The notes: a model not told the origin generated them from the letters alone. A stretch of 64,000 nt of DNA from Kiritimatiellia bacterium (GCA_050949565.1 JBMNFY010000011.1:70334-134333), one strand, 5' to 3'. Numbered from the stretch's first letter, positions 7,929-59,080 are shown. A program made the numbers and translations.

Positions 7929-8064
7929 AACGCTCAACCATGAAACACATGAAACTTCATGAAAATCAGGGACGAGCAGGTACCCATCCCTCTTGGCGAT
8001 CTCGGCATCTTGGCGGTTCCAAAAACTCCCCAAAAAATCTGTGTAATCTGTGCCATCTGTGGAT
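7929..8064. repeat. Repeat mosaic: CATGAAACA x3, CTTGGCG x3, ATCTGTG x3 modules
   Basis: 7929-7965 is identical to 8804-8840; 7936-8020 is inverted and degenerate at 39249-39308; 8037-8064 resembles 40142-40169. Confidence 0.9.
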
Positions 8065-8100
8065 AGAAATATCAGTGGATGAGAATAAATTGGCGGGGGT

Positions 8101-8427
8101 TCACTCCCCGTACATTTCCGTAATGGCACGGCGCAGAGCCGCAGCATCGCACTCGGGCAACGACCCCAGCTTGCGGCCAAACCGTTTTTTGCTGATGGTT
8201 CGGATTTGATCAACCGCGATTTCTGCCGGTCTGCCGGCGCATCGGATCTGAATGCGTGACCGCCAGCCCGGATGTATCTGGCTGGTCAACGGGCAGACCG
8301 TCACTGTCGCCAACACCTCATTCAGGGCATCCAGGCTCACAATCACAACCGGCCGTGTCTTGGCAATCTCTGATCCACGCACAGGATCCAGTTCTGCCCA
8401 AAAAATGTCGTACCGTTTTATATTCAC
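8101..8427 (-). CDS. MazF/PemK family endoribonuclease toxin
   Basis: LDPVRGSEIAKTRPVVIVS and DQIRTISKKR motifs. Confidence 0.92.
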   Translation of the reverse strand: MNIKRYDIFWAELDPVRGSEIAKTRPVVIVSLDALNEVLATVTVCPLTSQIHPGWRSRIQIRCAGRPAEIAVDQIRTISKKRFGRKLGSLPECDAAALRRAITEMYGE

Positions 8428-8753
8428 ATCCGCGCCGATTGTTTTGGATGGACGCGATAAGCGGCCGGTTTTTCAGCCGCCCGTTCTGCCTCCCACGGAA
8501 CGGTTTCGATTCCATCGGACGCAGTGACCTCCCATGCTAACCAATCCTCTTCCTCGGCGGCCATCGCCCGCGCCGTTTCCGCCCATGACAACTTTTGCCC
8601 CGTCTGCGGTTTCGGGCACAACAAGATGCCATCCTGAGTCTCATTCAGCACAAGCGTCTCCCCCACGTCGTATCTGCGCAGCACGTCCGCAGGGATTCTC
8701 ACTCCGCGCGAATTCCCGATCCTCACAACTTTCACCTCAACCGTTTGCATCAT
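8424..8753 (-). CDS. AbrB/MazE family antitoxin
   Basis: VVRIGNSRGVRIP N-terminus; 4-bp overlap with toxin; GGAGG RBS; GTAATTAC dyad at 8771-8778 upstream. Confidence 0.9.
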   Translation of the reverse strand: MMQTVEVKVVRIGNSRGVRIPADVLRRYDVGETLVLNETQDGILLCPKPQTGQKLSWAETARAMAAEEEDWLAWEVTASDGIETVPWEAERAAEKPAAYRVHPKQSARM

Positions 8754-8803
8754 AACCTCCCAACCAATACGTAATTACAGTACCAACATTTCGATGCAAG
8801 GTC

Positions 8804-8976
8804 AACGCTCAACCATGAAACACATGAAACTTCATGAAAAACCATGCCATGCCTTTCCGTGTGTTCAGTGTATTCCGTGGTTAAAAACCCCGCGCCACGC
8901 CCCCAAAAAACTCTGCGTCTCTGCGCCTCTGCGTTAAAAACCCCGAGCCATGCCCCAAAAATCGTAATCTGTGGAT
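8804..8976. repeat. Repeat mosaic: CATGAAACA x3, TTCCGTGTG x3, CTCTGCG x3, partial ATCTGTG
   Basis: Modules recur at 7929, 51688-51748, 19259/29036/33566/40091 and 8037/40142. Confidence 0.9.
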
Positions 8977-8988
8977 GCAAAAAAACGC

Positions 8989-11559
8989 TCAATTCGCCAC
9001 GATGTTAATCAAGCGGTTGGGGACGCAGATGACCTTACGGATCGTCTTGCCGTCCAAGGCTTCGCGCACCGCATCCTGCTCCAGCGCGAGCCGCTGCATC
9101 GTCTCCTCGTCGGCCGACGACGGCATCATGACGCGCGCCTTGGGCTTGCCCAGCACCTGCACGAGGATCTCCACCTCGTCCACCTTGAGATACTCTTCGT
9201 CGTACTCAGGCCAGGGCTCGTAGGCGAGCGTCTTATCGTGCCCCAGACGCTCCCAAAGCTCTTCGCCCAGATGCGGCGCGAACGGGGACAGCAGCAGCAC
9301 GAAGGTCTCCGCCGCCTCGCGCGGCAGCGGCTTGGCGTTGCCGGAGAAGCCATTGACGAAGATCATCATCTGGCTGATGGCCGTATTGAAACTCATTGCA
9401 TCGAGATCGTCCGTCACCTTTTTGATGGTGGCGTGCAGCAGACGGCGCTGCTCCGCGTCCAACGGGTCATCCGTGATCGGCTGTTCCACAACCATACGGA
9501 AGGCACGCTTGAGAAAACGGAACACGCCCTCCACACCTTTGGTATTCCAAGGCTTGACCGCCTCCAGCGGCCCCATGAACATCTCGTACAGGCGCATGCT
9601 GTCCGCGCCGTACTCGCGGATGACATCGTCGGGATTGACCACATTCTTCAGCGACTTGGACATCTTGGCCGGGAACTCGACGAGCTTCTCGCCGGTCTCG
9701 GTGTGGAAAGCGCCTTCGGTGCGCTGTTCCACCTTCTCCATCGGCACCAGCGCACCGCGCGCGTCCTTGTAGGAGAGACCCAGAATCATGCCTTGGTTCA
9801 CGAGCTTCTGGAACGGCTCAGGGGTTGACACATAGCCCAGATCAAACAGCACCTTGTGCCAGAAGCGGGAATAGAGCAGATGCAGTACCGCGTGTTCCGC
9901 GCCGCCGACGTACAAGTCCACCGGCATCCAATACTTTTCTTTGGCCGTATCGAACGCGGCACGCTCGTTGCGCGGATCGATGTAGCGCAGATAGTACCAG
10001 CAGGAGCCCGCCCACTGCGGCATCGTGTTGGTCTCGCGACGCCCCTTCGCCCCAGTGACCGGATCGGTGTAATCAAGCCATGCGCCCGCCTTTGCGAGCG
10101 GCGGCTCGCCGGTGCCGGTGGGCTTGTAGTCCTCCAACTCGGGCAGGAGCAGCGGCAGATCGTTATCATCCACCAGACGGATGGAGCCGTCCTCCATGTG
10201 AATCACCGGGAAAGGCTCACCCCAGTAGCGCTGCCGACTGAAGAGCCAGTCGCGCAGCTTGTACTTCACCGCGGCCTTGCCGACCCCGCGCGCGGCCAGC
10301 CACTCGGTGGTCACGCGCATGGAATCAGCGACAGCCATGCCGTTGATATCGAGCCCCTCGCTATTCGCCGAGCCGATCATGCGGCCATTGCCGGTCCAGC
10401 AGGCGCGGCCGGCCAGCACGTCATCCACAGATACGCCTTCAGCCGCCGCCTCGTCCGCGTCGGGCTCGATGATGCAGACGATCGGCAACTTGAATGTCTG
10501 GGCGAACTCAAAGTCACGCGTGTCATGCGCCGGCACGGCCATGATCGCGCCCGTGCCGTAACTGATCAGCACGTAGTCGGCGATCCAGATGGGAATCTCT
10601 CCGCCGGTCACGGGATTGACCGCGTACGCGCCGGTGAAGACTCCGGTCTTCTCGGTGTTCAGCTCGGTGCGATCCATGTCGCTCTTACGCGCGGCCTCCT
10701 CGCGGTAGCGGTCAACGTCGGTCCGCTGCGCGTCGGTCGTAATGCGCGTCACCAGCGGATGCTCGGGAGCCAGCACCATGTAGGTCGCACCGAACAGGGT
10801 GTCGGGACGCGTGGTGTACACTGTGACCTTTTCGTCGCATCCCGCGATTGTGAAATCGACCTCCGCGCCCTCCGACTTACCGATCCAATTGCGCTGCATC
10901 TCTTTGATGCCTTCCGGCCAGTCCAGTCCGTCCAGATCCGCCAGCAGGCGCTCGGCATACTCTGTGATGCGCAGCATCCATTGACGCATCGGCCTGCGGA
11001 TCACCGGATGGTTGCCGCGTTCGCTGCGTCCGTCGATCACCTCTTCGTTGGCGAGCACCGTACCGAGTGCGGGGCACCAGTTCACCGGCACCTCGGCCAT
11101 GTAGGCGAGGCCCTTCTTGTAAAGCTGCGTAAAAATCCACTGCGTCCACTTGTAGTAGCCGGGATCGGTGGTGTTCACCTCGCGATCCCAATCGTAACTG
11201 AATCCCAGCGCTTTGATCTGCTGGCGGAAACGATTAATATTGCGTTCGGTCGTGATCGCGGGATGCGTACCGGTCTCGACCGCATACTGCTCAGCCGGCA
11301 GACCGAATGCGTCCCAGCCCATCGGATGCAGCACGTTGAAACCGCGCATGCGCTTGTACCGGCAAAGGATGTCCGTCGCCGTATAGCCTTCGGGATGGCC
11401 GACGTGCAATCCTGAGCCGCTCGGATACGGAAACATATCGAGGCAATAGAACTTCGGCTTGCCCGCTTCAAAGTCATTCACCTTGAAGGTTTTGTTCGTC
11501 TCCCAATACGTCTGCCATTTTTTTTCAATCGCGGTGAAATCATACTCGTTCGTCGTCAT
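8989..11559 (-). CDS. leuS: Leucine--tRNA ligase
   Basis: [14 protein letters not shown] and KMSKS motifs, TTRPDT editing domain. Confidence 0.97.
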
Positions 11560-11628
11560 AACCGATTCCCATGGGTTAAAGAAAGTGGCATTGTAGCACG
11601 CAGCCCGCGAAACATCCACACCGAGAGA

Positions 11629-11925
11629 TGTTAGTTCATTAGTTCATTAGCGTTAGTGCATTAGTTTGGTCATCGGGATCGGGATCGCTATCGGGATCGG
11701 GATCGCCGCCAGTCAACCTCTCTTTATTGCGGCCACCCAGTGGCTCGCAATGATGAGTGTAAAAACGGACGGGAGGATGGGCACCGGGCGCGCGCAGGAT
11801 ATGCAATGAGGGGTACAAAACTCCTAACTCCTAAATCCTAAATCCCAACTCCTAAATCCGCGCGTAGCGCGGCTGCGCGGCGCAAGGTTTTAACCTCATC
11901 TTTGTGACCACTGGGTGGTCACAAA
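11629..11925. repeat. Repeat mosaic: TTAGT(T/G)CA heptamers, ATCGGG hexamers, two GACCAC-GTGGTC hairpins enclosing a CTCCTAA heptamer array
   Basis: Read directly; counterparts at 39170-39190, 39326-39353 and (inverted) 39965-40076. Confidence 0.9.
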
Positions 11926-12015
11926 AAGTGGGCGGATTGACTGACGCCGCGCGGAATTGGTACCCTGAACCAAACTCCAATTGTGAGCCCACCCCGTAAA
12001 CAGCAGGTGTCCGGT

Positions 12016-16103: not shown

Positions 16104-16386
16104 TTTGGTGATCTCCATGCTTGGTCTTTTTGTCACTCTAGCGGCCCGCCCAAGCTCCGGGCATGAGCAGCGGTAAAGTTGGCGCAACATGGTACAAATC
16201 ATTCCCCCCACCGACAAGTGAAATTTTTTTCGACCGCGCTGCCCCTAGGGTTCGATTACGCCACTCACCATTAACTAACTTTACACTGCCGTGCATGCTC
16301 CCTTATGATGAGTGGTCGAACATCAAGAACGATAAGGGCAATCGGGTGGTGACAGGGGACGGTTAATCTCGTACAGTTGGTCCTCG

Positions 16387-16529
16387 CACTTCGTCGGTTA
16401 CACCTCGTCGTTTTGTACTTCGGCGCGTACACTTAGTTTCTGCCGAATTGACGACTAAGTGTTTTCGACTAAGTGTGTAAGACTAAGTGTGTAGGACTAA
16501 GTGTGTAGGACTAAGTGTGTAGGACTAAG
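16387..16529. repeat. Inverted pair of 14-bp-period arrays: 4x CACTT(C/A)GTCG-like then 6x GACTAAGTGT
   Basis: GACTAAG at 16453, 16467, 16481, 16495, 16509, 16523; same architecture at 31781-31924 and 49448-50507. Confidence 0.92.
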
Positions 16530-19167: not shown

Positions 19168-19286
19168 CGGCTCGTGGGGACAGTCGCCCACCAGTGCTTC
19201 GCGTCTTCGCGCCTTCGCGTGAAACACCCGAGCAGTGCTTTTACTCTCCCCCAAAAACCTCTGCGTCTCTGCGCCTCTGCGTTAAA
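19168..19286. repeat. Repeat mosaic: REP-like GGCTCGTGGGGACA.TCGCCC, CTTCGCG x3, CTCTGCG x3
   Basis: Same module order as 33448-33593. Confidence 0.9.
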
Positions 19287-19326
19287 CAAACCCGAGCAGC
19301 GCAAAACAAACTCATGCACTAATGAA

Positions 19327-20862: not shown

Positions 20863-20948
20863 TCTCCCTCTTTCAGAAAAGTGTTACCCCTCAGCGCTCT
20901 CGCATAGTTTTTCTATGGTAGCACAAGGAGAAATCAGGTATCAACTGC

Positions 20949-22390
20949 AAGGACTTTCCCCAAAAAATCGGGGGCAATTATATCTAAGTCCTTGAAAACA
21001 AAGGGGATGCGTCTCTGACGGGCGTGCCTGAAAGTGAAAAAGTGGTTTTCCTCCGCCGGTTCTGCCAAAATGGCGGTTCAACCAAAAACCGGAAAGGAAA
21101 ACCGACATGAATCATAGCGCAACGGCGTTCAAAGCGCGAGAGCAACTCAAGAATTTTTTGGGGGAACTTTCCCCCCGGTTTTCCAAGCCGCTCGGCAAGT
21201 TCGTGGGCGACATGGTCTACGGGATACAGGCGTCGCAGGACGTGAAGCTCAGCCGGATCGCCCGCGCGCTCGACGAGCCGATATCGATGAAGAAACTGGA
21301 GGACAGGCTGAGCCGGATGCTCGGGAGCGAGGGCATCGAGCAGGGGATTTCCGACGCTGTCGCCCGTCTGGGCTCGCGTCACGTCCATCAGGACACGCTG
21401 ATCGTCATCGACCCGACCGACATCCGTAAGCTGTACGCGAAGAAGATGGAATATCTCGCCCGCGTCCGGGACGGGAGCACGGGGGAGATCGGCAACGGAT
21501 ACAGCGCCTGCCTGGCGGTCGCCTGCGAGAGCGGCGGCCGCCGGATCACGCCGTTGCACATGCGGCTGTGGTCGAGCGAGGCGGAGGGCTTCATCAGCCA
21601 GAACGACGAGGTGCTCGGCGTCATCGACCAGATCAGCTCCCGCGCGAAGAAGCGCGGCATCTACGTCATCGACCGCGGAGGCGACGGAGACTGGCTGTTC
21701 GACGGCCTGGACCGGCGCAAACTGGACTACATCGTGCGCCTCGTGGGCAACCGCAACCTGCTCCACGGCCGGCGGACCGCGCTGGCCGAAGAACTGGCGG
21801 CATCCTGCCCCATGAAGCACATCGAGATCGTCACGAGGGAGACGGGGGACGGGGTGAAAAGCTATAAGCTGGAGTTCGGCGCCATGACCGTCGCCCTGCC
21901 GCAGAGGCCCGACAAGCCCCTGCGCATGGTCGTGGTGAAGGGGTTCGGCGAGCGGCCGATGCTCCTGCTGACCACGCTGGCCGGGACGACGTCGCGCAAG
22001 TCCCTGTGGCAGGTCGTCGAGGGCTATCTGACGCGGTGGCGCGTCGAGGACGCGATCCGCTTCGTCAAGCAGAGCTACAACCTCGAGGACATCCGGGTCC
22101 TGACGTACCGGCGCCTGAAAAACATGGTCGCTCTGCTGCTGGCCGTCATCTACTTCAACTGCGTCTGGCTGGCCGGACGGCTGCGCTGCGAGATCCTGAC
22201 GACCAACATCACCCACGCCGCCAAGCGCATCTACGGCGTGGCCGAGTTCCTCCACTACGCCGTCGCCGACGGCCTCGGGAGGCTCTTCACGCGCCACGGG
22301 AAATGGTACGGCTACAAGCCGCCAGACCCCGAATCAAACCCGCTCGGACTGGTCTTTCTGGAATGACCAGATTTTTTGGGGAAACTCCTT
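20949..22390 (+). mobile_element. IS4-family insertion sequence, complete
   Basis: IRs AAGGACTTTCCCCAAAAAATC (20949-20969) / GATTTTTTGGGGAAACTCCTT (22370-22390); 9-bp target duplication ATCAACTGC at 20940-20948 and 22391-22399. Confidence 0.92.
21107..22366 (+). CDS. IS4-family DDE transposase
   Basis: IDPTD, IDRGGD and YREK-type YLTRWRVEDAIRFVK motif. Confidence 0.9.
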   Translation: MNHSATAFKAREQLKNFLGELSPRFSKPLGKFVGDMVYGIQASQDVKLSRIARALDEPISMKKLEDRLSRMLGSEGIEQGISDAVARLGSRHVHQDTLIVIDPTDIRKLYAKKMEYLARVRDGSTGEIGNGYSACLAVACESGGRRITPLHMRLWSSEAEGFISQNDEVLGVIDQISSRAKKRGIYVIDRGGDGDWLFDGLDRRKLDYIVRLVGNRNLLHGRRTALAEELAASCPMKHIEIVTRETGDGVKSYKLEFGAMTVALPQRPDKPLRMVVVKGFGERPMLLLTTLAGTTSRKSLWQVVEGYLTRWRVEDAIRFVKQSYNLEDIRVLTYRRLKNMVALLLAVIYFNCVWLAGRLRCEILTTNITHAAKRIYGVAEFLHYAVADGLGRLFTRHGKWYGYKPPDPESNPLGLVFLE

Positions 22391-29061: not shown

Positions 29062-29133
29062 ATAAGCCCGAACATTGACATCTACGGCAAAAATCTGGCA
29101 TGCTCTCGGGAACGAAAGAAGGAATGGAGAGGC

Positions 29134-39055: not shown

Positions 39056-39169
39056 GCTTTCTCCGCTAGTGACAAAAAACAAAAATAAGCATACCATTTC
39101 CCGCCGCAGAAAACCACTTTTTCTGGTGTCAGAGCCGCGATTTTTTAATGTAGAGGCAGGGAGAAGTTC

Positions 39170-39353
39170 GTTAGTGCATTAGTGCATTGGTTTGTTTGGG
39201 CAGAGCTCGGGTTTATTTTAATCACAACAAAGCGCCAGTGTGTTTTCTGGAACCGCCAAGGCCAAGAGAAGCCCCTGATTTTCATGAAGTTTCAGGTGTT
39301 TCATGGTTCCACGGGTTTCATCCAAATCGGGATCGGGATCGCTATTGGTATCG
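39170..39353. repeat. Repeat mosaic: TTAGTGCA, inverted CTTGGCG/CATGAAA pair, ATCGGG hexamers
   Basis: Matches 11629-11705 and the reverse complement of 7936-8020. Confidence 0.85.
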
Positions 39354-39372
39354 TCCTTAACTGAGGTAACGG

Positions 39373-39401
39373 TTGACACGTTCAACAGGCAGACGTAAAC
39401 T
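39373..39401 (+). promoter_or_regulatory. Sigma70 promoter for orphan gene
   Basis: TTGACA-17 bp-TAAACT. Confidence 0.65.
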
Positions 39402-39460
39402 TCCGACAAATCCAGAGACGACAATGTTTTTCATTCTCGATTCGGATGCGGAGGTTCGTC

Positions 39461-39973
39461 ATGAGCAAGACAGACACTCACACCAACAATCACCTGACCG
39501 CCGTTTCCGATGGCATGCCCCCGGCCTACGACACCGTCTCCGTGCCCTCTGCGCCTTCTGTGAGGAAACTCATCCGGGACACACCGCTTATTATCTTTGT
39601 CTTGTTATGCAGCGTATTTCAAATGTCATGCATTCAAGTTGACGGTAATTTTAACACCGGGGTTGCCGCCATTTCCAATCAGGTGGAGGATTCGGTTTCA
39701 TCAGGAATGTTGCTGACCTCAGCGTATACCGATTATTTTCAAGAATTCAATAGATGGCCTGACTCCCATGCCAAGCTTGTTGAATACTACAAGACCAAAG
39801 CGAAAACGGATGCATCGTTGATCGCGGTGTATAAACAGTTGGAAGAGTTCACGGAAGTAAAAGTTGTCAGCATTGAGGATCGGATTATAGAACTGGAGTT
39901 CAAGCGTCCGCCGATTTCGCCTGTAAATGGCAACCGTTCCGTGGCAACAGGCAAAGTAATCATTTTTTTGTGA
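39461..39973 (+). CDS. Orphan hypothetical membrane-anchored/lipoprotein-like protein, AT-richer than flanks
   Basis: GGAGGT RBS, consensus promoter, hydrophobic stretch LIIFVLLCSVFQMSC. Confidence 0.6.
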   Translation: MSKTDTHTNNHLTAVSDGMPPAYDTVSVPSAPSVRKLIRDTPLIIFVLLCSVFQMSCIQVDGNFNTGVAAISNQVEDSVSSGMLLTSAYTDYFQEFNRWPDSHAKLVEYYKTKAKTDASLIAVYKQLEEFTEVKVVSIEDRIIELEFKRPPISPVNGNRSVATGKVIIFL

Positions 39974-40169
39974 CCACTCAGTGGTCACAAAGACGAGGTT
40001 AAAACCTTGCAGCCGCGCAGCCGCACCCCGCCCGTTTTTACACTCACCATTGCGACCACTGGGTGGTCGCAATAACGCCCCCCAAAAAACCTCTGCGTCT
40101 CTGCGCCTCTGCGTTAAATTAACCCGAGCAATGCCCAAAAAATCTGCGTGGTCTGTGCCATCTGTGGAT
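39965..40169. repeat. Repeat mosaic: GACCAC-GTGGTC hairpin doublet, CTCTGCG x3, ATCTGTG x3
   Basis: Hairpins at 39967-39991 and 40049-40073; 40091-40118; 40142-40169. Confidence 0.9.
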
Positions 40170-40247: not shown

Positions 40248-40337
40248 GCCAGAGTGGTGGAATGGCAGACACAGTGGACTTAAAATCCACAGGCGGGTGA
40301 AATCGTCGTGGGGGTTCGAGTCCCCCCTCTGGCACCA
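40248..40337 (+). tRNA. tRNA-Leu(TAA)
   Basis: GCCAGAG/CTCTGGC acceptor stem, GTGGA-CTTAAAA-TCCAC anticodon arm, long variable arm, GGTTCGAGTCC, encoded CCA; TTGAGC-17-TAAATT upstream. Confidence 0.95.
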
Positions 40338-45987: not shown

Positions 45988-48900
45988 ACCTCGTTCAGAA
46001 CCGCTCCATCTCCGCTTCGGCCGGAACCGGCAAGACCTTCCGCCTCGCCCACCGCTACATCGGCCTGATGGCCGCCGGCGTGGCGCCGGATCGCATCTGC
46101 GCGCTCACCTTTTCCCGCAAGGCGGCGGGCGAGATTTTCGATAAGATCGTCGAACATCTTTGCGCGGCCGTGACCGACGATAAAAAGCGCGGCCAAACCG
46201 CCGCAACGATTGAAAAGGAAGGGTTTGCTCCCCCCGACCAGGCGGACGACTACCTGCGCCTGTTGCGCACCCTGCTCGACCACGGCCACCGCCTGCGGAT
46301 CGGCACGCTCGACAGCTTTATCCTCGGCGTCGTGCGCGCCTTCCCGCTGGAGCTGGGCGTGCCACCCGAAACGCGCCCCATGGATAACAACGGCGGCGAG
46401 GCCGAAGCCACGCGCCTATCCATTCTGACCCGCCTTCTCGATCCGCGATCCCCGCTCGAAGCGAACTGGCAGGAGGCGTTCCTGAGCGCCTTCCGCATGT
46501 CGCAACACGGACGCGAGACCAAGCGGCTGTTGTCCGTCCTGAATAAACTGATCATGGACTACCACGCCTTTTATCGGGCACACGGCGCACAGGCGTGGCA
46601 CTGGGGCGACCCAGAACGCATCTGGCCACAAGCCGACCGCTGGTGGGAGACCGGCCCCAGCGATCCGCCGCCCGATACGCTAGCCGAAAGTCTGCGCACG
46701 GTGTTCGGCGATGCAAGCCGACCGGCCAAGCTCGGCAACCAAATTGCGGAAATCGTAACCGCCGCCCTGTCGCACGCGATCGACAAGCCATGGCCGAAGA
46801 GGGACGACAAAGCCTCGCTTCAACTTCTGCAGAACGCCGCCAGCCCCCAGCCGCCCACGCTCGTCTACTACAACAAAGAGTACCCGCTTCCCCAGCCGTT
46901 ATGGGACGGCGTGCGGTTTGCGCTGTGCCATGCGATCGATGTGGAGATCAAGCGCGCACTGAGGCAGACACAGGGGCTGCGTGCCGTGCTCGCCCGTTAT
47001 GATGAAAGCTACGCCGCCGCGCAGACACGCGACGGGCACTTCACCTTTGAAGACCTTTCGCGCCTTCTCGGCTCCGACAACCACGCGCCCAGCCGCGTCC
47101 CCGACGCAGCGAACCGGCTCTACATCGACTACCGTCTGGATGGCAAGTTGGATCACTGGCTGATGGATGAGTTCCAAGACACGAGCGACACGCAATGGGC
47201 CGCGCTCGCGAACCTCGTGGACGAAGTCATCCAGGACGACGCGCGCTCCTTTTTCTTCGTGGGCGATATCAAGCAGTCGATTTACGGGTGGCGCGGCGGC
47301 AACTACCGTCTCTTCAACAAGATTCAGGAGAAGTATCAGGGCGGTGGCGCGCGCGCCATCGTCAGCGAGTCGATCCAAACATGCCACCGCTCGTTGCCGG
47401 CCATCATTGACGTCGTCAACCAGACATTCGATGATCTCGCCGCTTGGACGCCGTCCATCGGTGAACAGGCGGGGTTGCGTGCCGCTGCCGTCCAAGCCTT
47501 TGCCCGCGCCTGGACGTACCACGAAAGCGCAAGGACAAACGAAGGGGCGGGGTTCGTTTCGCTGCTCGAATACGAACCCCCGAAAACAAATGCAGCGCCG
47601 CCGACCGAATCCGACGATGGCGAAGAAGATGCCGGATGTCCCGCCCAGTTCGAGGCTGTCGCGGCGATCCTGAAACAGACCCAGCCCTTCGAGCGCGGAC
47701 TGACAGCCGCCGTGCTCGTGCGCAACAACAAGACCGGCCGTGCGTGTGTGGATGCGCTCCGACGCCTGCTGCCGGATGTGCCGTGCGTGCATGAAGGCAA
47801 AGGCGGCATCACCGACAATCCGGTCGTGACCCTGCTGCTGGCACTGGTCCATTACGCCACGCACCCCGGCGACACGGTCGCCCTGCGCCATCTCCAGATG
47901 AGTCCGTTGGGAAGCGCCTGCGCAGACATCGGATACAACGCGCTGCCGGTGGTCTTATTGCGATCGCTTCAGATGCGCGGGTTCGCCGCCACGCTACGTG
48001 AATGGGGCGAAAAGCTGGGCGACTTGGACTCCTTCAGTCAGCGACGCCTGAGTGAGTTTTTGGCGGCCGCCGAAAGTTTCGATGCGCTGGGCGTGTGCGA
48101 CCCCGACCGCTTCACGGATCATATCGAATCCTATGAGACCCGATCCGACGCCGCCGCAGGTTCGGTACGCGTGATGACCGTCCATCAGGCCAAGGGGCTG
48201 GGATTCGATCTGGTCGTGATCCCCTTCGAGGCCCGGCGCGACAGCTTTGAAAAACCGAAAACGCCGCAACTTCTGGCGGGCGACGACTGGGTGCTCAACC
48301 CGCCGAACCGTCAAGTGCTGGACGCCGCAGGCGGCGCACCGGTGGACGCCTACGACGCCGCGCGCGCCGACGCAAACTTCGCCCAGCTCTGTGTACTCTA
48401 CGTGGCCATGACCCGCGCCCAGCGGGCGATGTACTTGGTTGTGCCGAAGAGGGCGAAAAACCCGACCACCGCCAGCGAGGTCGATTTGCTGCGCGAGCGC
48501 TTGCAGTCCGACGTTCCTCCGGATGTGGGGCCAGGCGGATTCACGCAGCTCTACACTCACGGCGACCCTGATTGGTTCCAGCAACACCAAGCACCGACAG
48601 CCGACGCGCCGGAGAGTCCAGCCGCACCGCTCCGTATTGGGTTTACGACCGACATCATTTTGCGCGAACCTTCAAAAGAACACCTCGATGGTCACACCTT
48701 CCCGGCCCAGTGGTTGTTCAATGCTGAGGCTGGCGACGTACGCGCCTTCGGCTCCGCCATCCACCGCCTTTTCCAAAAGATCGCGTGGCTTGAAGAGACC
48801 GACATCGAGCGCGTCATCACCGAGTGGCGGCAAGAGTCCGCAGAGTCCGCAATTTTGCTGGGTGATGTCGAACGCCAGTTCAGAGCGTGCCTGCAAAACA

Positions 48901-49250
48901 GCGAGGTACAAAAAGCGCTCTCGAGACCTACCGCAGGAAGAGCGGAAGTTTGGATCGAAGCTCCGTTCAACCTGCTGGTTAACATCGACGGGCAAAAGCA
49001 ACTCATGAGCGGACGCTTCGACCGCCTCGTGATTGAGAGAGACGCGGCGGGATGCCCCGTACACGCGACGATCATCGACTTCAAGAGTAACCGCATCGCC
49101 ACGGAACAGCAGATTCAAGAAACCGCCCGCGGCTACGCTGGCCAGATGTGCGACTACGCCCGCGCCGCCGCGCAACTTCTCGGCCTGTCTCCCGAGCACG
49201 TCACCCCTACCCTGCTCTTCACGCGGCTGGGGCGGATTGTCTTATTGTGA
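45984..49250 (+). CDS. AddA-like UvrD helicase-nuclease
   Basis: ASAGTGKT, DEFQDT, GDIKQSIYGWRG, LYVAMTRA, C-terminal GRFDRL..IIDFKS. Confidence 0.9.
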   Translation: MNLVQNRSISASAGTGKTFRLAHRYIGLMAAGVAPDRICALTFSRKAAGEIFDKIVEHLCAAVTDDKKRGQTAATIEKEGFAPPDQADDYLRLLRTLLDHGHRLRIGTLDSFILGVVRAFPLELGVPPETRPMDNNGGEAEATRLSILTRLLDPRSPLEANWQEAFLSAFRMSQHGRETKRLLSVLNKLIMDYHAFYRAHGAQAWHWGDPERIWPQADRWWETGPSDPPPDTLAESLRTVFGDASRPAKLGNQIAEIVTAALSHAIDKPWPKRDDKASLQLLQNAASPQPPTLVYYNKEYPLPQPLWDGVRFALCHAIDVEIKRALRQTQGLRAVLARYDESYAAAQTRDGHFTFEDLSRLLGSDNHAPSRVPDAANRLYIDYRLDGKLDHWLMDEFQDTSDTQWAALANLVDEVIQDDARSFFFVGDIKQSIYGWRGGNYRLFNKIQEKYQGGGARAIVSESIQTCHRSLPAIIDVVNQTFDDLAAWTPSIGEQAGLRAAAVQAFARAWTYHESARTNEGAGFVSLLEYEPPKTNAAPPTESDDGEEDAGCPAQFEAVAAILKQTQPFERGLTAAVLVRNNKTGRACVDALRRLLPDVPCVHEGKGGITDNPVVTLLLALVHYATHPGDTVALRHLQMSPLGSACADIGYNALPVVLLRSLQMRGFAATLREWGEKLGDLDSFSQRRLSEFLAAAESFDALGVCDPDRFTDHIESYETRSDAAAGSVRVMTVHQAKGLGFDLVVIPFEARRDSFEKPKTPQLLAGDDWVLNPPNRQVLDAAGGAPVDAYDAARADANFAQLCVLYVAMTRAQRAMYLVVPKRAKNPTTASEVDLLRERLQSDVPPDVGPGGFTQLYTHGDPDWFQQHQAPTADAPESPAAPLRIGFTTDIILREPSKEHLDGHTFPAQWLFNAEAGDVRAFGSAIHRLFQKIAWLEETDIERVITEWRQESAESAILLGDVERQFRACLQNSEVQKALSRPTAGRAEVWIEAPFNLLVNIDGQKQLMSGRFDRLVIERDAAGCPVHATIIDFKSNRIATEQQIQETARGYAGQMCDYARAAAQLLGLSPEHVTPTLLFTRLGRIVLL

Positions 49251-49541
49251 CCACGCAGTGGCTCGCGCAGCGCGTCGATTTAGGATTGAGGAGTTAGGAT
49301 TTTCCACTTCTGAGTTCGATGTTCTGGGTTCTACGTTCTGAGTTCACAAAAGTAGCGGCGTGACCGCCGCCGGGCAAGCAGACGCTTGCCCCTCCCGGCG
49401 CTTCGCGAACCGACGAAGGACGGGAGGGCGAGTGTCCCCACGAGCCGCACTTCGTCGCGACACTTCGTCGTTTACACCTAGTCCAAACACTTTGTCGCTA
49501 GCGCAATCGACTAAGTGTAGCGACTAAGCGTAACCGACTAA

Positions 49542-50485
49542 GGGCTTATCCGTAAATAACCATCACCTTGTTGAGAGTAATCATACCCGCAGCCAGATGT
49601 AGGAGCGCGTAATATGAAAGGTCGGCCTTCTCGTACCGCTTATCGATCTTCCGAAAGCGGTTCGTCCATGAATGGTTTGCCTCTACGACCCATCTTCGCG
49701 CCTTGAACTCTGGATTGCGTTTTATTTCTGCAGCCTCTTTGTTTCGCGGGCTAATGTGCGGAATATATCCCCACGCGGCCACGATATCGCCCTTGCCTGT
49801 ATATGCTGCATCAAGACAGAGGTTTTCGATCACGCCTTCGCCGCCAGACTCAGGCGGCTGCCGCACAACCTTGGCGGCGAGAAGCGCGTCAATTTCCTTG
49901 CTGTCATGTACGTTGGCTCCGGTTACGACGATCGACAGCGGGACGCCACGCCCGTCGGCGAGGACGTGGCGCTTGGTACCTTTTTTTCCCCCTGTCCGTT
50001 GGGTTGGGCCCTACGGATTCGCGTGCCAGCGGTGCTTTATTGTTAGTGCTGTCGGCAGATTGCCACTCCCAGGCGATACCTTCGAGATCATCGTATTCGG
50101 CGAGCCCCTTGCGCCAGATCGCCAGGAAAAATCCCGCCCCGGCCCACTCCTGAAAGCGCTTGTGCACTGCCGAACTGCCCAATCCCCCGAACTTTTCACG
50201 AGGAAGCGCGTTCCAGATGAGCCCGTTGCGAAGAACGTAGACAATCGCCTCGAAGTAAAGCCGGTCGCTGTAGATCGGCTTCCTGCCGCCGCCGGGCTTT
50301 CGCTTGTACGTGCGGGATGGATCCCTGCGCGTCTCCGGCAGCAGCGGCTCGACCAGAGCCCAAAACTCGTCACTAATCTCCCAAGTGCGTATTCTCGCCA
50401 TCTGATTGTCCTCCTGATGTGGTTGGTTGGCGGGAATTTTATCAGGAAACGCTGGGAAATGAAACAATTATTTGCGGATAAGCCC
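49542..50485 (-). mobile_element. IS5-family insertion sequence, complete
   Basis: IRs GGGCTTATCCGTAAATAA / TTATTTGCGGATAAGCCC (17/18 match); duplicated TAA (or CTAAG if the ends are drawn 1 bp inward). Confidence 0.93.
49546..50401 (-). CDS. IS5-family transposase in two frames joined at a G5A7 tract (49981-49992)
   Basis: Frame 1 WEISDEFWALVEPLLP...GPNPTDRGKK; next frame GTKRHVLADGRGVPL...LDAAY...RWVVEANHSW. Confidence 0.88.
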
Positions 50486-50600
50486 TAAGTGTGTGGAACT
50501 AAGTGTTTCCGTGCGTTGCGCGGAGGGAAAGCGGTGCCGCAACCCGCGCACAGCGCGGCTCTTGTCACCGCACTCCAAGACGGAGACCTTTCGCCCCCCT

Positions 50601-51014
50601 TCAAACAGGTGTGCCGGGATGAAAAATGCCGTGCTCAAACAGGTAGCGTTCGGCGTCTTCTTTGCTACGCGGCTTTACGGACATGAGCGGCCCCTCGTCA
50701 AAACTGAATGTCCGATCGCCGGGTGCCGTATGACGCCGAGCCCACTCCGCGCCGTCTTTTCCGATGAAGGGGTTATACCCCTCGAACGCTTCGACATACG
50801 CCGCCACGAGCTGGGCGTCGTCACAGAGGGTCTTCCCACCCACGGGTTCGTCAAAACATACTACTCCCTTAGTGAACGGAACAGTCGGTTTGAAACCGCC
50901 GGTCAATATTCCAATACCGCAACGCGCCGTGAACGTCCATCCACACTCATCTTTGGTCAAAGAAAAGTCATATACCCCTTTCACGTCGTGTAAGATGATG
51001 TCATCAAAAGCCAT
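50601..51014 (-). CDS. Orphan hypothetical protein
   Basis: GAGGGAG RBS before ATG, 137-aa open frame co-oriented with the RM remnant; no family recognised. Confidence 0.5.
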   Translation of the reverse strand: MAFDDIILHDVKGVYDFSLTKDECGWTFTARCGIGILTGGFKPTVPFTKGVVCFDEPVGGKTLCDDAQLVAAYVEAFEGYNPFIGKDGAEWARRHTAPGDRTFSFDEGPLMSVKPRSKEDAERYLFEHGIFHPGTPV

Positions 51015-51042
51015 GGCTCTCCCTCAGATTTCGTCAACGTCG

Positions 51043-51252
51043 TTACTTCGCGCCCTTGCGGCGGTTGCATTCCCGGCAAAGCATCTGGCAATTTTCAAGG
51101 CCGGTCTTGCCGCCTTCGCTCCAAGGTGTGATGTGATCCGCCTCCATCTCCGCTTCTTGAAACTGTTTGCGACAAAGGGAACACTTGCCTTTCTGGCGTT
51201 CGTATGCGCTGCGTTTCTGGGCGGGCGTGAAGGCGCGGATGTTCAGATACAC
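51043..51252 (-). pseudogene. C-terminal HNH domain remnant of a DUF262/HNH-type restriction nuclease
   Basis: CSLC...EADHITPWSEGGKT..NCQMLCRECNRRK, preceded by YLNIRAF. Confidence 0.75.
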
Positions 51253-51374
51253 AGGACAGACTTGCCCTCGAACTGGTCTCGATAATGGCGCACCTCCGCC
51301 TCGATGTCGGGCATTTGCGTATAGAACTCATCCGCCTTGTTCTTCTTTGCCTGTGTTAGAGTTGATGTCGCCAT
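51243..51374 (-). pseudogene. N-terminal remnant of an EcoRI-family adenine methyltransferase
   Basis: LTQAKKNKADEFYTQMPDIEAEVRHY...KSVLC, truncated just before the expected NCDDP. Confidence 0.8.
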
Positions 51375-51498: not shown

Positions 51499-51748
51499 GG
51501 ATTTAGGATTGAGGATTTAGGAGTTAGCCTGCCTGCGCCACGAAAAAACCATGGAGTAACTGCGACAAAAAGTTCAAGTTATAGGCAAGGAGTTGAGCAT
51601 GCAGACTTTGAGCAAAGCCCCGTAAATATTGGCTTCCGTTGAGATCCGCGCCGCATCTATTTGGTGCAGAACGCAATTTCTGATTGGAACCACGGAACAC
51701 ACTAAACACACGGAAACAGCGCCATGCCTTTCCGTGTGTTCGGTGTGT
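51499..51748. repeat. TTAGGA heptamer array (51499-51527) and CACACGGAA/TTCCGTGTG inverted module (51688-51748)
   Basis: Right arm GCCATGCCTTTCCGTGTGTTC matches 8846-8866. Confidence 0.85.
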
Positions 51749-52052
51749 CTTGACGGAGAACGTAACGTCGCCTGCTCCGGCAACATCGAAACCCTGCTTG
51801 ACTATGCGATAACGGATGAAGGCGGACATCCGGCGATGACCAACTACTGCTTCGCGGGACTGGTCAAGTGAAGAGTCGCACTTCGCCACAGACAGCACGG
51901 CACTCGTCTTCGACGACGCGGCGTTGCCATCAAGATCGTCAACGCCCAAAGCGGCATCTGGTACACGCTCTACGCCGTGGACGATCTTTCCTTTTTCATT
52001 CGCCATCGGCCGACAGATTGCGCTACGCTGTTCTCTTTACTGGGACATGTCT

Positions 52053-56299: not shown

Positions 56300-57351
56300 A
56301 GAGGCTTGTCGACACATTCGACGCAGCAAGGCTGCATGCGCTACTCACCCGCTTTGAAGGGCTGCGCGTGGCGGTGTTGGGCGATTTCTTTTTGGACCAA
56401 TATTTTGAGATCGATCCCGCATGCGTGGAGACCTCGGTGGAAACCGGTCGGCAGGCGCATCAGGTGACAGCCATTCGCCATGCGCCGGGCGCGGCGGGCA
56501 CGGTGGTCAACAATCTGGCCGCGCTCGGCATAAGACCAATCGCCGTGCTGGGCATCACGGGAGACGACGGCAACGGCTGGGCGCTGCGACGCGACCTGAC
56601 GGCATTAGGCTGTGATCTCACGCACCTGCTTACCGACGCCGCCTGCGTAACCCCGACTTATCTCAAAATCCGCGACCGCACACTTCCGGGGCTCGATGGG
56701 GAGCGGGATCGCTTCGACATCAAAAACCGCTCGCCCTTGCCCGAGCGTGTCGGCGAAGCATTGCTCGCAGCGGTCGACCGGCTTCTGCCCACTCTTGATG
56801 CCCTGCTCGTGATGGATCAAGTTCCCGAAGAGGGGTGCGGCGTCATGTCGCTAGCTGTGATCGATGCCCTATCCGAACGCGCCAAGCGTCATCCGCAAAC
56901 GCTGTTCTGGGCCGATTCGCGCCGCAGGATCCGCCGCTACCGCAACATCACGCTTAAAGCCAACCAGTTTGAAATTGCAGGTGTGACGGAGCCGTTGCCC
57001 GGCACCAGTGTGCCAGATGAAACGTTGGCGCGTGCGGCCGACGAGTTCGCAGCCCTAGTCGGCGCGCCGGTCTTTGTCACGGCGGAAGCACGCGGCGTCC
57101 GCATCGCGGGGCCTCTCTCGGCCACCGTTCCGCCGGTTCGCGTGACGGGGCCGATCGACCCCACAGGCGCGGGCGACGCCTTTTCGGCCGGTGCTGCGGC
57201 GGCTCTGGCAGCCGGTGCCACGCATCCGGAAGCGGCCTTGATGGGCAATCTGGCCGCGTCGGTCACCATCCGTCAACTCGGCACGACAGGTACCGCTTCG
57301 CCGTCCGACCTCGCCGCCGCACTCGCGCTCTGGAGGGAACAGCAGTCATGA
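56296..57351 (+). CDS. PfkB family carbohydrate kinase (HldE kinase-domain-like)
   Basis: VLGDFFLDQY, PGAAGTV, DPTGAGD. Confidence 0.88.
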   Translation: MKRLVDTFDAARLHALLTRFEGLRVAVLGDFFLDQYFEIDPACVETSVETGRQAHQVTAIRHAPGAAGTVVNNLAALGIRPIAVLGITGDDGNGWALRRDLTALGCDLTHLLTDAACVTPTYLKIRDRTLPGLDGERDRFDIKNRSPLPERVGEALLAAVDRLLPTLDALLVMDQVPEEGCGVMSLAVIDALSERAKRHPQTLFWADSRRRIRRYRNITLKANQFEIAGVTEPLPGTSVPDETLARAADEFAALVGAPVFVTAEARGVRIAGPLSATVPPVRVTGPIDPTGAGDAFSAGAAAALAAGATHPEAALMGNLAASVTIRQLGTTGTASPSDLAAALALWREQQS

Positions 57352-58463
57352 AGCAACTCTTCGACCGGCGTTCCCTCGCCCCGCGTCCGCTCGCCGAGCG
57401 CCGCAATAAAATTGATTTCGCGCGTACTCAGATCAACCCCGAAACCTACGAACCGCAACTTACGGACGATGCGCGCGAAACCGTTCGGCAACTCGCCTGC
57501 GAGATACGCGCCGCCCGTGACTGCGGTGCATCGGTCGTGATGGCGTTCGGTGCGCATTCCATCAAGAACGGACTTGCTCCGGTGTTGACCGGTCTCATGC
57601 AGGACGGTTGGATCACCCACTTCGCGACCAACGGCGCCGGCGTGATTCACGATTGGGAGTTCGCCTTCCAAGGGTTCTCCGGAGAAGACGTGCAGCGCTA
57701 TGTCGCCGAAGGTCAGTTCGGCCTTTGGGAGGAAACCGGCCTGTATCTGAATCTAGCGCTTGCGGTTGGCGCCTACGAGGGGCGCGGCTACGGCGAGGCG
57801 GTCGGTGCGTTTATCACAGATGAGGGTTTGACGATCCCCGCGCCCGGCGATCTGGATGCCGCGATCGCGGCAGGAGCCGCAGCGGATGCGGATGAAGTGA
57901 CGCTGGCGCGTGCGGCGGCTGCGGCCGACCTGAAAGCGATCATGCGCTACATTCCGGCTGATCCGGGTTTCCTGCATGTGCCGCACCCCTTCAAGACGTA
58001 CAGTCTGCAAGCGGCGGCTTATCTGGCCGGTACGCCGTCGACGGCACATCCCATGTTCGGACACGACATCATCTACACGCACCCGTTGAATCGCGGCGCA
58101 CCGATCGGGCGCACCGCCGACCGTGATTTCCTGAGCTTCGTGGACTCGGTCAGCAGACTCGAACAGGGCGTCTACCTGTCGGTCGGGTCCGCGGTCATGT
58201 CGCCGATGATTTTCGAGAAGGCGTTGTCGATGTCGCGTAATGTGGCGCGGCAGCGGGGCCAAGCGATTGAAAACTTTACGATCCATGTGGTTGACCTCGC
58301 GCCCGCAACGTGGGACTGGGCGCACGACGGAGAACCGCCGCAGGATAATCCCGCCTACTATCTGCGCTTTTGCAAAACCTTTTCGCGCATGGGCGGACGT
58401 ATGACTTACACCAGCGCGGACAACCGCGCATTTCTCGTAGCGCTCTATCACGAACTCGCATAA
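57348..58463 (+). CDS. Conserved hypothetical protein (possibly deoxyhypusine-synthase-like fold)
   Basis: FGAHSIKNG, ATNGAGVIHD, VGSAVMSP motifs; overlaps the upstream kinase stop. Confidence 0.7.
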   Translation: MKQLFDRRSLAPRPLAERRNKIDFARTQINPETYEPQLTDDARETVRQLACEIRAARDCGASVVMAFGAHSIKNGLAPVLTGLMQDGWITHFATNGAGVIHDWEFAFQGFSGEDVQRYVAEGQFGLWEETGLYLNLALAVGAYEGRGYGEAVGAFITDEGLTIPAPGDLDAAIAAGAAADADEVTLARAAAAADLKAIMRYIPADPGFLHVPHPFKTYSLQAAAYLAGTPSTAHPMFGHDIIYTHPLNRGAPIGRTADRDFLSFVDSVSRLEQGVYLSVGSAVMSPMIFEKALSMSRNVARQRGQAIENFTIHVVDLAPATWDWAHDGEPPQDNPAYYLRFCKTFSRMGGRMTYTSADNRAFLVALYHELA

Positions 58464-58483
58464 CAACAAGGAGACCCAAAACC

Positions 58484-59071
58484 ATGACGAAGGCTCTAGA
58501 GTCTTACGCGGCGGATGCCGCCGCCAAATTGATGTTGACCGATTTCAGAAAACTGGCAGAGATCGGCGACGTGTTGTTGCGCGCGAAGGCTGAAAACCGG
58601 ACGATCTTTCTGATCGGCAACGGCGGCAGCGCCGCAACGGCTTCGCATGTGACCAATGATCTGGTCAAAGGGTGCAGGATCGGCGACACGCCGGGATTCC
58701 GCGCGTTTTGTCTGAGCGACTCCAACGCGCTGGTGACCTGTCTGGCGAATGATTTTTGCTATGCCGATATCTACGCGATTCTGCTGCAAACTTACGCGCA
58801 GGCGGGTGATATCGTGATCGCGTTCAGCGGCAGCGGCAACTCGCCGAACATCCTCAACGGATTGACCGCAGCGCGCGCGATGGGACTCACCACCATCGGT
58901 TTCGGCGGACGCGACGGCGGCCAGATGAAGGCGCTCTGCGACCTCGTGCTCATCGCTCCCACCGATTCGATGGAGCTGTTGGAGGACTTGCACCTGATCT
59001 ACTTCCACAACCTTGTTTGCGCGATGCGCCCCGCGCTTGCAGAGAATTTAGGAGAAGGAGTTAGGATTTAG
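58484..59071 (+). CDS. SIS-domain sugar-phosphate isomerase (GmhA-like)
   Basis: GNGGSAATASH, CLAND, SGSGNSPN, EDLH. Confidence 0.88.
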   Translation: MTKALESYAADAAAKLMLTDFRKLAEIGDVLLRAKAENRTIFLIGNGGSAATASHVTNDLVKGCRIGDTPGFRAFCLSDSNALVTCLANDFCYADIYAILLQTYAQAGDIVIAFSGSGNSPNILNGLTAARAMGLTTIGFGGRDGGQMKALCDLVLIAPTDSMELLEDLHLIYFHNLVCAMRPALAENLGEGVRI

Positions 59072-59080
59072 GAGTTGGGC

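Follow-up and report, generated by a model that had tools for sequence, protein, structure and literature searches.

The long intergenic gaps lying between positions 7929 and 59079 of the DNA stretch considered here are filled with mosaics of short repeats, and the question raised by this locus is where such mosaics come from. The window, i.e. the whole stretch that was analysed, comprises 64,000 nucleotides (nt) of a Kiritimatiellia bacterium (GCA_050949565.1 JBMNFY010000011.1:70334-134333, or G000:C11:70334-134333 with the genome and contig labels used below). In the initial annotation, the gaps were described as being assembled from a shared list of modules, and these modules were proposed to act as recombination platforms for small accessory genes, in the manner of integron cassettes devoid of attC sites and of the IntI recombinase. 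We consider it probable that the mosaic is a build-up, similar to that of bacterial interspersed mosaic elements (BIMEs), of non-coding sequences derived from small palindromic gene cassettes; these cassettes belong to two superfamilies, of which intact members occur elsewhere in the genome, and most of the derivatives are single ("solo") terminal arms.

Genomes and definitions

The assembly of the genome analysed (G000) spans 4.66 Mb in 21 contigs with ~60% GC. Module positions in the window were established using Tandem Repeats Finder together with direct reading of the sequence, and the term intergenic designates the ~15% of the genome left by a crude gene caller. The scan for triple heptamers retained any heptamer repeated three times at a spacing of 8-10 nt with at most one mismatch. 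The comparison involved the congener G002, whose flanks are 96-98% identical, the more distant congeners G001 and G005, another compared member of the genus (G003), a representative of another genus (G018) and one of another family within the same order (G023). Half or more of a 10-kb stretch of the window is present in at least 20 metagenome runs from digesters, bioreactors or sludge (19 studies). An assembly artefact was ruled out, as related genomes and contigs from independent metagenome runs contain the same module sequences. The genes located beside most of the module gaps are housekeeping genes, namely ogt, leuS, PEPCK, uppP, rplS/ybeY, uvrA, gyrA and tRNA-Leu.

Gene cassettes bracketed by their own repeat arrays

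Six GxxExxY loci (one of them split), nine full four-helix-bundle genes, two DUF1016 genes and a few weak matches to Y1 transposases are present in the genome. None of these genes lies within the window, which contains arms only. The family identity of the first two is given by PF13366 (1e-40; GxxExxY/PDDEXK_3, TIGR04256) and PF05635 (four-helix bundle, 6e-28). A link between similar arrays and these two families was mentioned in the initial annotation and holds in this genome: inspection by eye revealed inverted arrays of the cognate unit on both sides of 6/6 GxxExxY and 9/9 four-helix-bundle genes. The GxxExxY units possess their own inverted and phased triple heptamers (CACGGAA, CGCAGAG, CATGAAA in two instances, CACGAAT and CGCAAAG), and the four-helix-bundle units their own inverted contiguous arrays, including TTAGGAG (C17:395 kb) and GAACGCA/GTTCTGC (C8:62 kb). 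The nuclease gene of the CTCTGCG cassette is located at C15:17343-17738, one of a CATGAAA cassette at C17:565114-565509, and the four-helix-bundle gene flanked by TTAGGAG arrays at C17:395371-395784. A shuffle-controlled bracketing test was passed by 10 of the 14 cognate gene models, compared with none of 110 random genes of 90-220 amino acids (aa); the models that failed are wrong gene models or have imperfect arms. Since each cognate gene is bracketed by arms of its own unit, the CTCTGCG, CATGAAA and TTCCGTG modules of the window are identified as arms of nuclease cassettes, and its TTAGGAK and GTTCTGC arrays as arms of four-helix-bundle cassettes.

The links similarly mentioned for DUF1016 genes and for RAYTs, the tyrosine transposases associated with repetitive extragenic palindromes (REPs), proved weak: one of the two DUF1016 genes is found behind a four-helix-bundle cassette, but the RAYT-like genes have their own, different palindromes. 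The DUF1016 (YhcG_C) gene at C17:1211488-1212823 directly follows the downstream arm of the cassette.

The D...ExK and GxxExxY residues are invariant in 30/30 aligned GxxExxY sequences. The structure predicted for this protein (predicted local distance difference test, pLDDT, 92) has Cas4, lambda exonuclease and the AddAB/AdnAB nuclease domains as closest folds, and a sequence search of the PDB with the same protein returned no match below an E value of 0.66. The four-helix-bundle protein matches PDB entry 2RLD (7e-30). Genes encoding Fic, DEAD helicase and Schlafen/AlbA_2 proteins are also observed between inward-facing arms elsewhere in the genome, a layout expected by chance because the arms are so numerous.

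Distribution in other genomes

GxxExxY is carried by 108 of the 151 sampled genomes of the class. The strict detection of an identical inverted heptamer succeeded at just 7/30 class loci and was replaced by an ungapped inverted-repeat test performed against shuffled sequences. Using the latter, inverted phased-heptamer arms were detected at 23 of the 28 testable GxxExxY loci originating from 30 class genomes. Four-helix-bundle genes are present in 30/61 class genomes and display arms at 23/29 loci, with an internal period of 7 (16 loci), 8 (5 loci) or 6 (2 loci). When named genomes of many phyla were considered, 25 of 77 testable loci passed the arm test, and several others exhibited similar arms below the threshold. 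Pairs of proteins with a common heptamer are 62% identical versus 49% for the other pairs, which was reached by none of 5000 label shuffles.

Repeat families across the genome

The scan identified 982 triple-heptamer loci in the genome, 848 of them intergenic; 1233 raw matches were obtained from the real sequence versus none from 1 Mb of shuffled sequence. These loci fall into 35 heptamer families, the largest being CTCTGCG (173), CATGAAA (162) and TTCCGTG (91), and most families fit the form xxxxGYG (CRYNRAR on the other strand). The consensus module is ~45 nt long and consists of CCCCCAAAAAA, the 7-mer x3 and (GG)TTAAAAA, with no conservation past its ends. Short tandem arrays of period 6-10 are found in 617 of the 2492 gaps and in 42-50% of the gaps of at least 200 nt. 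They occupy 155/313 convergent, 331/1001 co-directional and 109/400 divergent gaps; the arms favour gene 3' ends. Solo arms outnumber the cognate genes by up to ~170:1.

As inferred in the initial annotation, several non-autonomous repeat families share the same gaps; they pile up there and nest in each other. In the row of co-directional genes at C17:555-566 kb, for instance, every gap contains CATGAAA elements, two of which bear the nuclease gene and two of which hold nested foreign modules. The conserved module order was recovered as well: modules seem to keep their order because blocks of 100-270 nt containing 2-4 modules recur as units at many loci (70-94% identity) and as tandem satellites.

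Modules of the window

The repeat mosaic is present at the gaps named initially. The TTAGGA(G/T) arrays were retrieved at the seven sites announced (11819, 31656, 31953, 33401, 49277, 51499 and 59048), as were the three CATGAAA x3 modules (7938, 8813 and, on the opposite strand, 39280) and the three GACTAAG 14-mer sites. Other counts required adjustment. Four CTCTGCG x3 sites are present instead of five (8911, 19259, 33566 and 40091), all on the + strand as described; they are identical 23-mers for which the chance expectation is 0.01. This common orientation is local, since CTCTGCG is distributed genome-wide as 50 + and 43 -, and the bias of GYG-form modules with respect to GC skew is only weak (48 +/87 - under positive skew, 90 +/72 - under negative skew). 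Among the three ATCTGTG x3 modules, the one at 8036 is exact, the one at 40136 is degenerate and the one near 8967 is reduced to a single-unit remnant. Four of the seven GACCAC/GTGGTC hairpins are exact, and the three others (11728, 14168 and 49250) are degenerate and were read by eye. A relaxed threshold gave 22 triple-heptamer candidates in the window. The 13 non-coding ones are genuine; among the nine located in open reading frames (ORFs), eight are weak (1-2 mismatches) and the ninth is a GCAGTRCCC array within an over-called ORF start. With the exception of GCAGTRCCC, every module family of the window occurs in multiple copies in the genome, most of them intergenic. The features are as follows.

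7921-8066 (+): module cluster left of mazF, with CATGAAA x3 in left-arm form (7938-7965), CTTGGCG x3 (7991-8015) and ATCTGTG x3 (8036-8062); 162, 19 and 23 loci genome-wide, respectively

8101-8753 (-): mazF (8101-8427; Pfam PemK, 3.7e-27) and mazE (8424-8753; MazE, 3.1e-06)

8803-8975 (+): module chain ahead of the leuS stop, with CATGAAA x3 (8813-8841), TTCCGTG x3 (8855-8880), CTCTGCG x3 (8910-8935) and a single ATCTGTGG remnant (~8967-8974); the block 8811-8961 is repeated elsewhere at 72-84% identity, including in tandem satellites on C18 and C5

11631-11706 (+): contiguous arrays of TTAGTTCA/TTAGTGCA 8-mers (11631-11666) and ATCGGG 6-mers (11672-11706); ATCGGG-type arrays number 69 genome-wide and, in G001, flank a degenerate four-helix-bundle gene

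11724-11931 (unstranded): composite block of ~210 nt with an imperfect hairpin, a TCCTAAA array (11819-11859) and a GTGACCAC hairpin (~11899-11925); at least 10 recurrences over 215-226 nt at 71-82% identity

14135-14192 (unstranded): tail of a CTTCGCG-type block and GCGA(T)CCAC...GTGGTCGC hairpin, in the gap where the esterase and PEPCK genes converge; no change in contigs of three metagenome runs

16380-16529 (+): CACTTCGTC-type words followed by GACTAAGTGTGTAG x5.5 (16453-16529); ~3 copies in G002; the search for a cognate gene was negative

19168-19325 (+): CTTCGCG x3 (19196-19221), CTCTGCG x3 (19258-19283) and inverted TTAGTKCA words; the block recurs elsewhere

28684-28965 (+): GTAATAG 7-mers (28684-28717) and GCAGTRCCC 9-mer arrays (28771-28793 and 28931-28965) with two GC-rich hairpins between them; GCAGTRCCC occurs at this site only, the two hairpin families in 241 and 158 copies

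31656-31983 (unstranded): gene-less nested palindrome with outer arms TTAGGAG x4 and TCCTAAA x4 and, inside, TTGAGCG and GTTCTGC 7-mers and a CACTTCGTC / GACTAAGTG stem; RNA fold of -127.5 kcal/mol (z -5.0)

33401-33590 (+): TTTAGGA array (33401-33430), block with CTTCGCG and GCGACCAC hairpin (33448-33549), and CTCTGCG x3 (33565-33590)

39171-39341 (unstranded): TTAGTGCA x2, degenerate CGCCAAG module, TTTCATG x3 (39280-39305) and ATCGGG x2.7 (39326-39341)

39446-39973 (+): orphan ORF encoding 175 aa within a stretch of 47% GC, no Pfam family above cut-off

39965-40165 (+): GTGACCAC hairpin, GCGACCAC hairpin, CTCTGCG x3 (40090-40115) and ATCTGYG x3 (40136-40163), directly upstream of tRNA-Leu (40248-40337); copies of the block are found elsewhere over 150-168 nt at 80-85% identity

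49247-49542 (+): left part of a TTAGGAK-type composite homologous to the 31.7-kb one, with TTAGGAK (49277-49302), GTTCTGR (49308-49345), hairpins and CACTTCGTC / GACTAAG arrays

49543-50475 (-): IS5-family insertion sequence (IS) with two ORFs (DUF4096 and DDE domain), at CTAAG within the GACTAAG array, which resumes at 50476-50525

50601-51374 (-): orphan ORF of 137 aa, HNH endonuclease fragment (51043-51252) and EcoRI-methylase N-terminal fragment (51255-51374)

51499-51752 (unstranded): TTAGGAK array (51499-51527) and same-family inverted doublet CACGGAA x3 / TTCCGTG x3 (51685-51752)

59048-59076 (+): TTAGGAG array filling the SIS-ROK gap within an operon

The outer TTAGGAK arms of the palindrome 31656-31983 also bracket a four-helix-bundle gene at C17:395355-395961.

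The ORF 28753-30768 is probably over-long: the AMP-binding domain of its product begins at residue 169, and repeat modules and hairpins make up the ~80 initial codons. The uvrA stop codon is the TTA of the TTAAAAA tail of a CTCTGCG module, and the last ~8 uvrA codons (33589-33620) are unlike those of G001; a BamB-like gene in G002 likewise received a new C-terminus from an inserted mosaic. The final AGGAG of the array 59048-59076 is located 8 nt ahead of the ROK ATG, and the array provides TAG stops in every frame. Judging from such features, TTAGGAG-type arrays may serve as translational insulators or ribosome-binding sites. The restriction-modification remnant mentioned in the initial annotation is present, the methylase fragment being 40 aa long. 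The large genes at 43129-49250 do not belong to a restriction-modification system and are AddB/AddA-like.

Turnover between congeners and stability within species

The sites are polymorphic between congeners, in keeping with the initial annotation: six of the seven comparable gaps differ in module content between G000 and G002. At ogt-leuS, G002 has no mazEF, and the set CATGAAA-CTTTGCG-ATTCGCG-CTCTGTG-ATCTGYG replaces that of G000, with similar spacers between the modules. The BamB-uppP gap measures 48 bp in G000 and contains a ~440-bp mosaic in G002. The 14-mer array near 16.4 kb has ~3 copies in G002 versus 5.5 in G000, with a different left neighbour, and the stretch downstream of uppP differs as well. 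The 49.3-kb composite of G002 contains ~350 bp extra and no IS5, its flanks being located on separate contigs. At 58.49 kb, G002 has an oxidoreductase paralogue and a 430-bp mosaic, both missing from G000. The PaaK-uvrA gap exists in three states: it is 38 bp long in G001, contains a 228-bp heptamer mosaic in G000 and, in G003 and G005, houses a RAYT-like gene together with an array of a 28-nt palindrome. The ORF of the third state (L026 281-1210 in G003; L028 in G005) encodes 309 aa with a PNHVH (HUH-like) motif and is flanked by the tandem array of the 28-nt palindrome CACGGCATGCCG...; this ORF, which has no Pfam match at E 0.001, may be a divergent RAYT.

In metagenome contigs, only the IS4-like element 20939-22389 is polymorphic. 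As congeners differ and metagenome strains match, the modules change at the species scale and not at the strain scale. The empty site of the IS4-like element is solid, with a joint from 20938 to 22390 (side 255) in two metagenome runs (X3 and X11). The element is 99% identical to a G023 copy, this genome contains at least 12 nearly identical copies of it, and it looks like an active IS. The read joints bypassing mazEF or connecting module clusters, with sides of 18-30 nt, all arise from cross-matching of repeats and were not used. The RNA-run contig over 7925-8837 was not accepted as evidence of transcription. The leuS gene (8993-11614) is 94% identical to that of G023 and 89% to those of genomes of the same genus, compared with 67-73% for other genes versus G023, and it may have been transferred horizontally.

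Accessory genes

The initial annotation stated that the modules cluster around accessory cargo. This is correct in the window for four of the five islands, namely mazEF, the 175-aa orphan, IS5 and the 137-aa orphan with its restriction-modification fragments, the IS4-like element being the one not flanked. The clustering was not confirmed at a larger scale, given that arrays are carried by 617/2492 gaps and that 8 of the 15 module-bearing gaps of the window have core genes only as flanks (leuS, PEPCK, uppP, ybeY, uvrA, SIS/ROK and others). The enrichment of toxin-antitoxin genes beside modules, which had been suggested as a check, is not convincing: 6/12 toxin genes were found at <=600 nt, versus 35% of all genes and 32% of the small genes.

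The mazEF pair lies between direct repeats of ~38 nt that include the CATGAAA module. It is missing in G002, which retains one CATGAAA arm, and this absence is best interpreted as a loss, which plausibly occurred between the direct repeats on either side. In G001 and G005, mazEF occupies the same ogt-leuS locus (74% identity) without adjacent heptamer modules and is therefore older than the modules that surround it here; in G018 it is found in a module-free context. Flanking direct repeats of the mazEF type were counted at 68 gene intervals (96-710 aa) and are common because a quarter of the gaps carry a few dozen families. The ogt-leuS locus is a genus-wide hot spot: three genomes have mazEF there, G005 has hicAB and G001 a four-helix-bundle cassette. 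The hicB/hicA pair of G005 (L011 3220-3646) has direct repeats on either side consisting of an AACGCTC-type 7-mer array and ~30 nt.

All three full copies of IS5 are inserted at CTAAG/CTTAG within GACTAAG-type words, and the corresponding site is empty in G002; the position of IS5 is explained by its CTAAG target, which lies within the repeat. The stretch 39100-40000, in which the 175-aa orphan lies beside tRNA-Leu, has 47% GC versus ~60% elsewhere. The orphan is not found at the gyrA-upstream site of G001 or G003, where another gene directly abuts gyrA, and the stretch probably represents foreign DNA inserted close to a tRNA gene.

Proposed origin of the mosaic and alternative explanations

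According to the explanation that we regard as probable, two types of cassettes would have supplied the arms. The type 1 cassette consists of a gene encoding the ~130-aa GxxExxY/PDDEXK_3 nuclease between two inverted arms, each composed of one heptamer x3 with a spacing of 8-10 nt, i.e. about one helical turn. The type 2 cassette combines a four-helix-bundle gene, of the family of 23S rRNA intervening-sequence proteins, with inverted arms in which the 6-8-mer units are contiguous. The arms are intermixed with REP-like GC hairpins and 14-mer hairpin elements. The encoded protein could bind its own heptamers, the nuclease contacting three sites that face the same side of the helix, and drive copying or cutting at the arm boundary. 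When the arms are paired, the insert would fold as an excisable RNA hairpin and would thus be tolerated between genes, as in rRNA intervening sequences. Arms and accessory genes would both build up in permissive, recombination-prone gaps, hence their adjacency, the arms being substrates for deletion and rearrangement rather than capture sites. Cognate gene-arm pairs, nesting, block copying with satellite amplification, the preference for 3' ends and turnover at the species level are directly observed.

A bolder version of the same idea is quite unlikely. The heptamer arrays would be address labels for their own small proteins, the phased triplets being read by a Cas4/RecB-like mini-nuclease and the contiguous arrays by a four-helix-bundle oligomer, and the cassettes would be recombinase-free selfish elements, present across phyla and kin to rRNA intervening sequences. 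Solo arms would be landing pads at which a cut is repaired from any copy with the same arm, so that DNA is shuttled between cognate arms, normally the nuclease gene and occasionally a toxin-antitoxin pair or another gene.

A number of observations weigh against a cassette origin of the mosaic. At least seven abundant heptamer families are without a cognate gene in this 92%-complete assembly (CTCTGTG 72, CTTCGTG 40, CTTTGTG 26, TTTCGTG 26, CTTCGCG 23, ATCTGTG 23 and CTTGGCG 19), and the search of this genome for a cognate gene of the ATCGGG arrays or of the GACTAAG 14-mers was negative. An inverted partner of the same family lies at <=700 nt from only 13 of the 706 phased modules, compared with 240 for a direct partner; the replicative unit is therefore not a doublet of the REPIN type (REP doublet forming a hairpin). 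The cross-phylum arm test was passed by only a third of the loci. The nearest protein shares the heptamer at only 10/22 loci, and co-inheritance alone can produce the covariation of protein and heptamer. The 14.1- and 16.3-kb gaps exhibit 0-5 differences in contigs of three metagenome studies. No target-site duplication is visible at the element ends that were read, and no clean filled/empty junction was obtained for a single module. No transposition or homing event was caught, and the differences between congeners resemble segment replacement.

Three other explanations must be weighed against the cassette-derived build-up. The modules might be recombination platforms that capture or exchange small accessory genes, integron-like without attC or IntI, for example through nuclease-triggered gene conversion between cognate arms. 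This possibility could account for the four module-flanked islands, for mazEF between its direct repeats and its absence, with one arm kept, from the 97%-identical G002, for the G005 hicAB pair between its AACGCTC-array repeats, for the G002 gene and 430-bp mosaic missing from G000, and for the Fic and Schlafen/AlbA_2 genes between inward-facing arms. It is nevertheless very unlikely, and the integron-like platform of the initial annotation is not supported: a whole-genome search for the tyrosine recombinase family PF00589 gave seven matches, none on C11, and the window proteins that were scanned include no recombinase either; specific bracketing by inverted arms is restricted to the two cognate families (0/110 for random small genes); mazEF is the older component, present without heptamer modules in G001, G005 and G018; direct-repeat flanks at 68 intervals are unsurprising; the CTAAG target accounts for the position of IS5; and neither the toxin counts nor the 8/15 core-only gaps argue for capture. 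The arrays could also be host cis-elements, acting as transcript-end stabilisers or terminators, translational insulators or arrays for nucleoid or regulatory proteins, with the small genes as their regulators. The preference for convergent and co-directional over divergent gaps, the stability of the arrays within species, the stops in all frames and the AGGAG ahead of the ROK start, the uvrA stop codon provided by a module tail and the strong RNA fold of the composite (z -5.0) are all compatible with such a role. It remains unlikely in view of orthologous gaps that pass from 38-48 bp without modules to mosaics of 230-440 bp with unchanged flanking genes, of different heptamer families at the same position in G000 and G002, of kb-scale tandem amplification, of dozens of interchangeable families and of the same layout round a nuclease gene in many phyla.

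That the phased heptamers are ordinary REP/REPIN elements moved by a RAYT (Y1 HUH) transposase is extremely improbable. A Y1_Tnp gene (C8:242526-243581) is indeed bracketed by GGGGTCGTAGTTTGACATTAGAC repeats, with small doublets elsewhere, and the PaaK-uvrA gap of G003 and G005 contains the RAYT-like PNHVH gene with its 28-nt palindrome array. The repeats linked to RAYTs are however unlike every listed module family, the genes bracketed by heptamer arrays encode PDDEXK_3 and four-helix-bundle proteins, inverted doublets of one family are rare, and the G003 gene is without Pfam match at the threshold given above. Within C8:242458-244875, the Y1_Tnp gene (351 aa, 1e-11) is accompanied by GGGGTCGTAGTTTGACATTAGAC repeats, and inverted doublets of the same repeat, 190-480 bp long, are found on C4, C8 and C15; this is a separate REPIN-like system.

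Significance

If the link between genes and repeats is functional, it would represent a partnership of the REP-RAYT kind based on other enzymes, i.e. a ~130-aa PD-(D/E)XK nuclease and an rRNA intervening-sequence protein. The proposal, if true, would provide a testable origin for rRNA intervening sequences and a function for two large families of "hypothetical" proteins. From a practical standpoint, the arrays occupy a quarter of the intergenic gaps and cause short-read assemblies to break precisely where genes adjoin. They also mark the points where the gene content of congeners differs.

Comparison with known systems

Literature searches, performed on titles and abstracts, returned no published link between GxxExxY genes and repeat arrays; for the four-helix-bundle/S23p family with repeats, only a paper on Coxiella was relevant.

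Integron cassettes are characterized by the IntI recombinase, attC sites and small, co-oriented, promoterless genes. The present mosaic shares with them short, imperfectly palindromic boundaries between small genes and some accessory genes between repeats. It differs by boundaries that are tandem heptamer arrays, apparently without attC architecture, and by flanked genes of 60-1095 aa, in both orientations and mostly core. As in miniature inverted-repeat transposable elements, a gene-less palindromic copy shares its ends with a gene-bearing relative (31656-31983 versus C17:395355-395961). Unlike in these elements, no DDE or other known transposase is involved and single arms predominate; no target-site duplication was visible at the element ends read.

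The BIMEs of enterobacteria are extragenic mosaics in which a few REP or palindromic unit (PU) motifs follow each other in recurring order; each genome has several hundred such sites, mostly at the 3' ends of genes. The extragenic location, small parts list, recurring order, predominance at gene 3' ends and several hundred sites are common to both. Here, however, tandem heptamer arrays take the place of REP/PU palindromes, these arrays bracket a cognate small gene, and dozens of families are involved.

In REP/REPIN-RAYT systems (Bertels & Rainey 2011, PMC3116915), inverted doublets known as REPINs are the over-represented unit. The resemblance to these systems lies in short intergenic repeats that are present in hundreds, tied to one or a few repeat-flanked genes and organized in clusters and tandem arrays. 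By contrast, the gene here encodes a PD-(D/E)XK nuclease or a four-helix bundle instead of a Y1 HUH transposase, and a phased or contiguous heptamer array replaces the GTAG-tagged palindrome, inverted doublets being rare (13/706). The mosaic is BIME-like and the partnership of genes and repeats REP-RAYT-like, but the proteins and the repeat grammar are different.

A close counterpart of the type 2 cassette is the intervening sequence of Coxiella burnetii, for which PMC4990558 describes an S23p ORF, a 28-bp terminal stem, three tandem GACAGAT heptamers and excision by RNase III; its status as a possible former mobile element is discussed in the same source. The PF05635 family, the terminal inverted repeats forming a stem and the tandem heptamers beside the ORF are shared with that element. 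Nine cassettes elsewhere in the genome, and none within the window, contain an ORF of the 23S_rRNA_IVP / TIGR02436 type. Unlike that element, all the copies examined here lie between or beside protein-coding genes and not in an rRNA helix, most of them are gene-less arms present in ~100 or more copies, and a second, nuclease-encoding class of cassettes coexists with the first.

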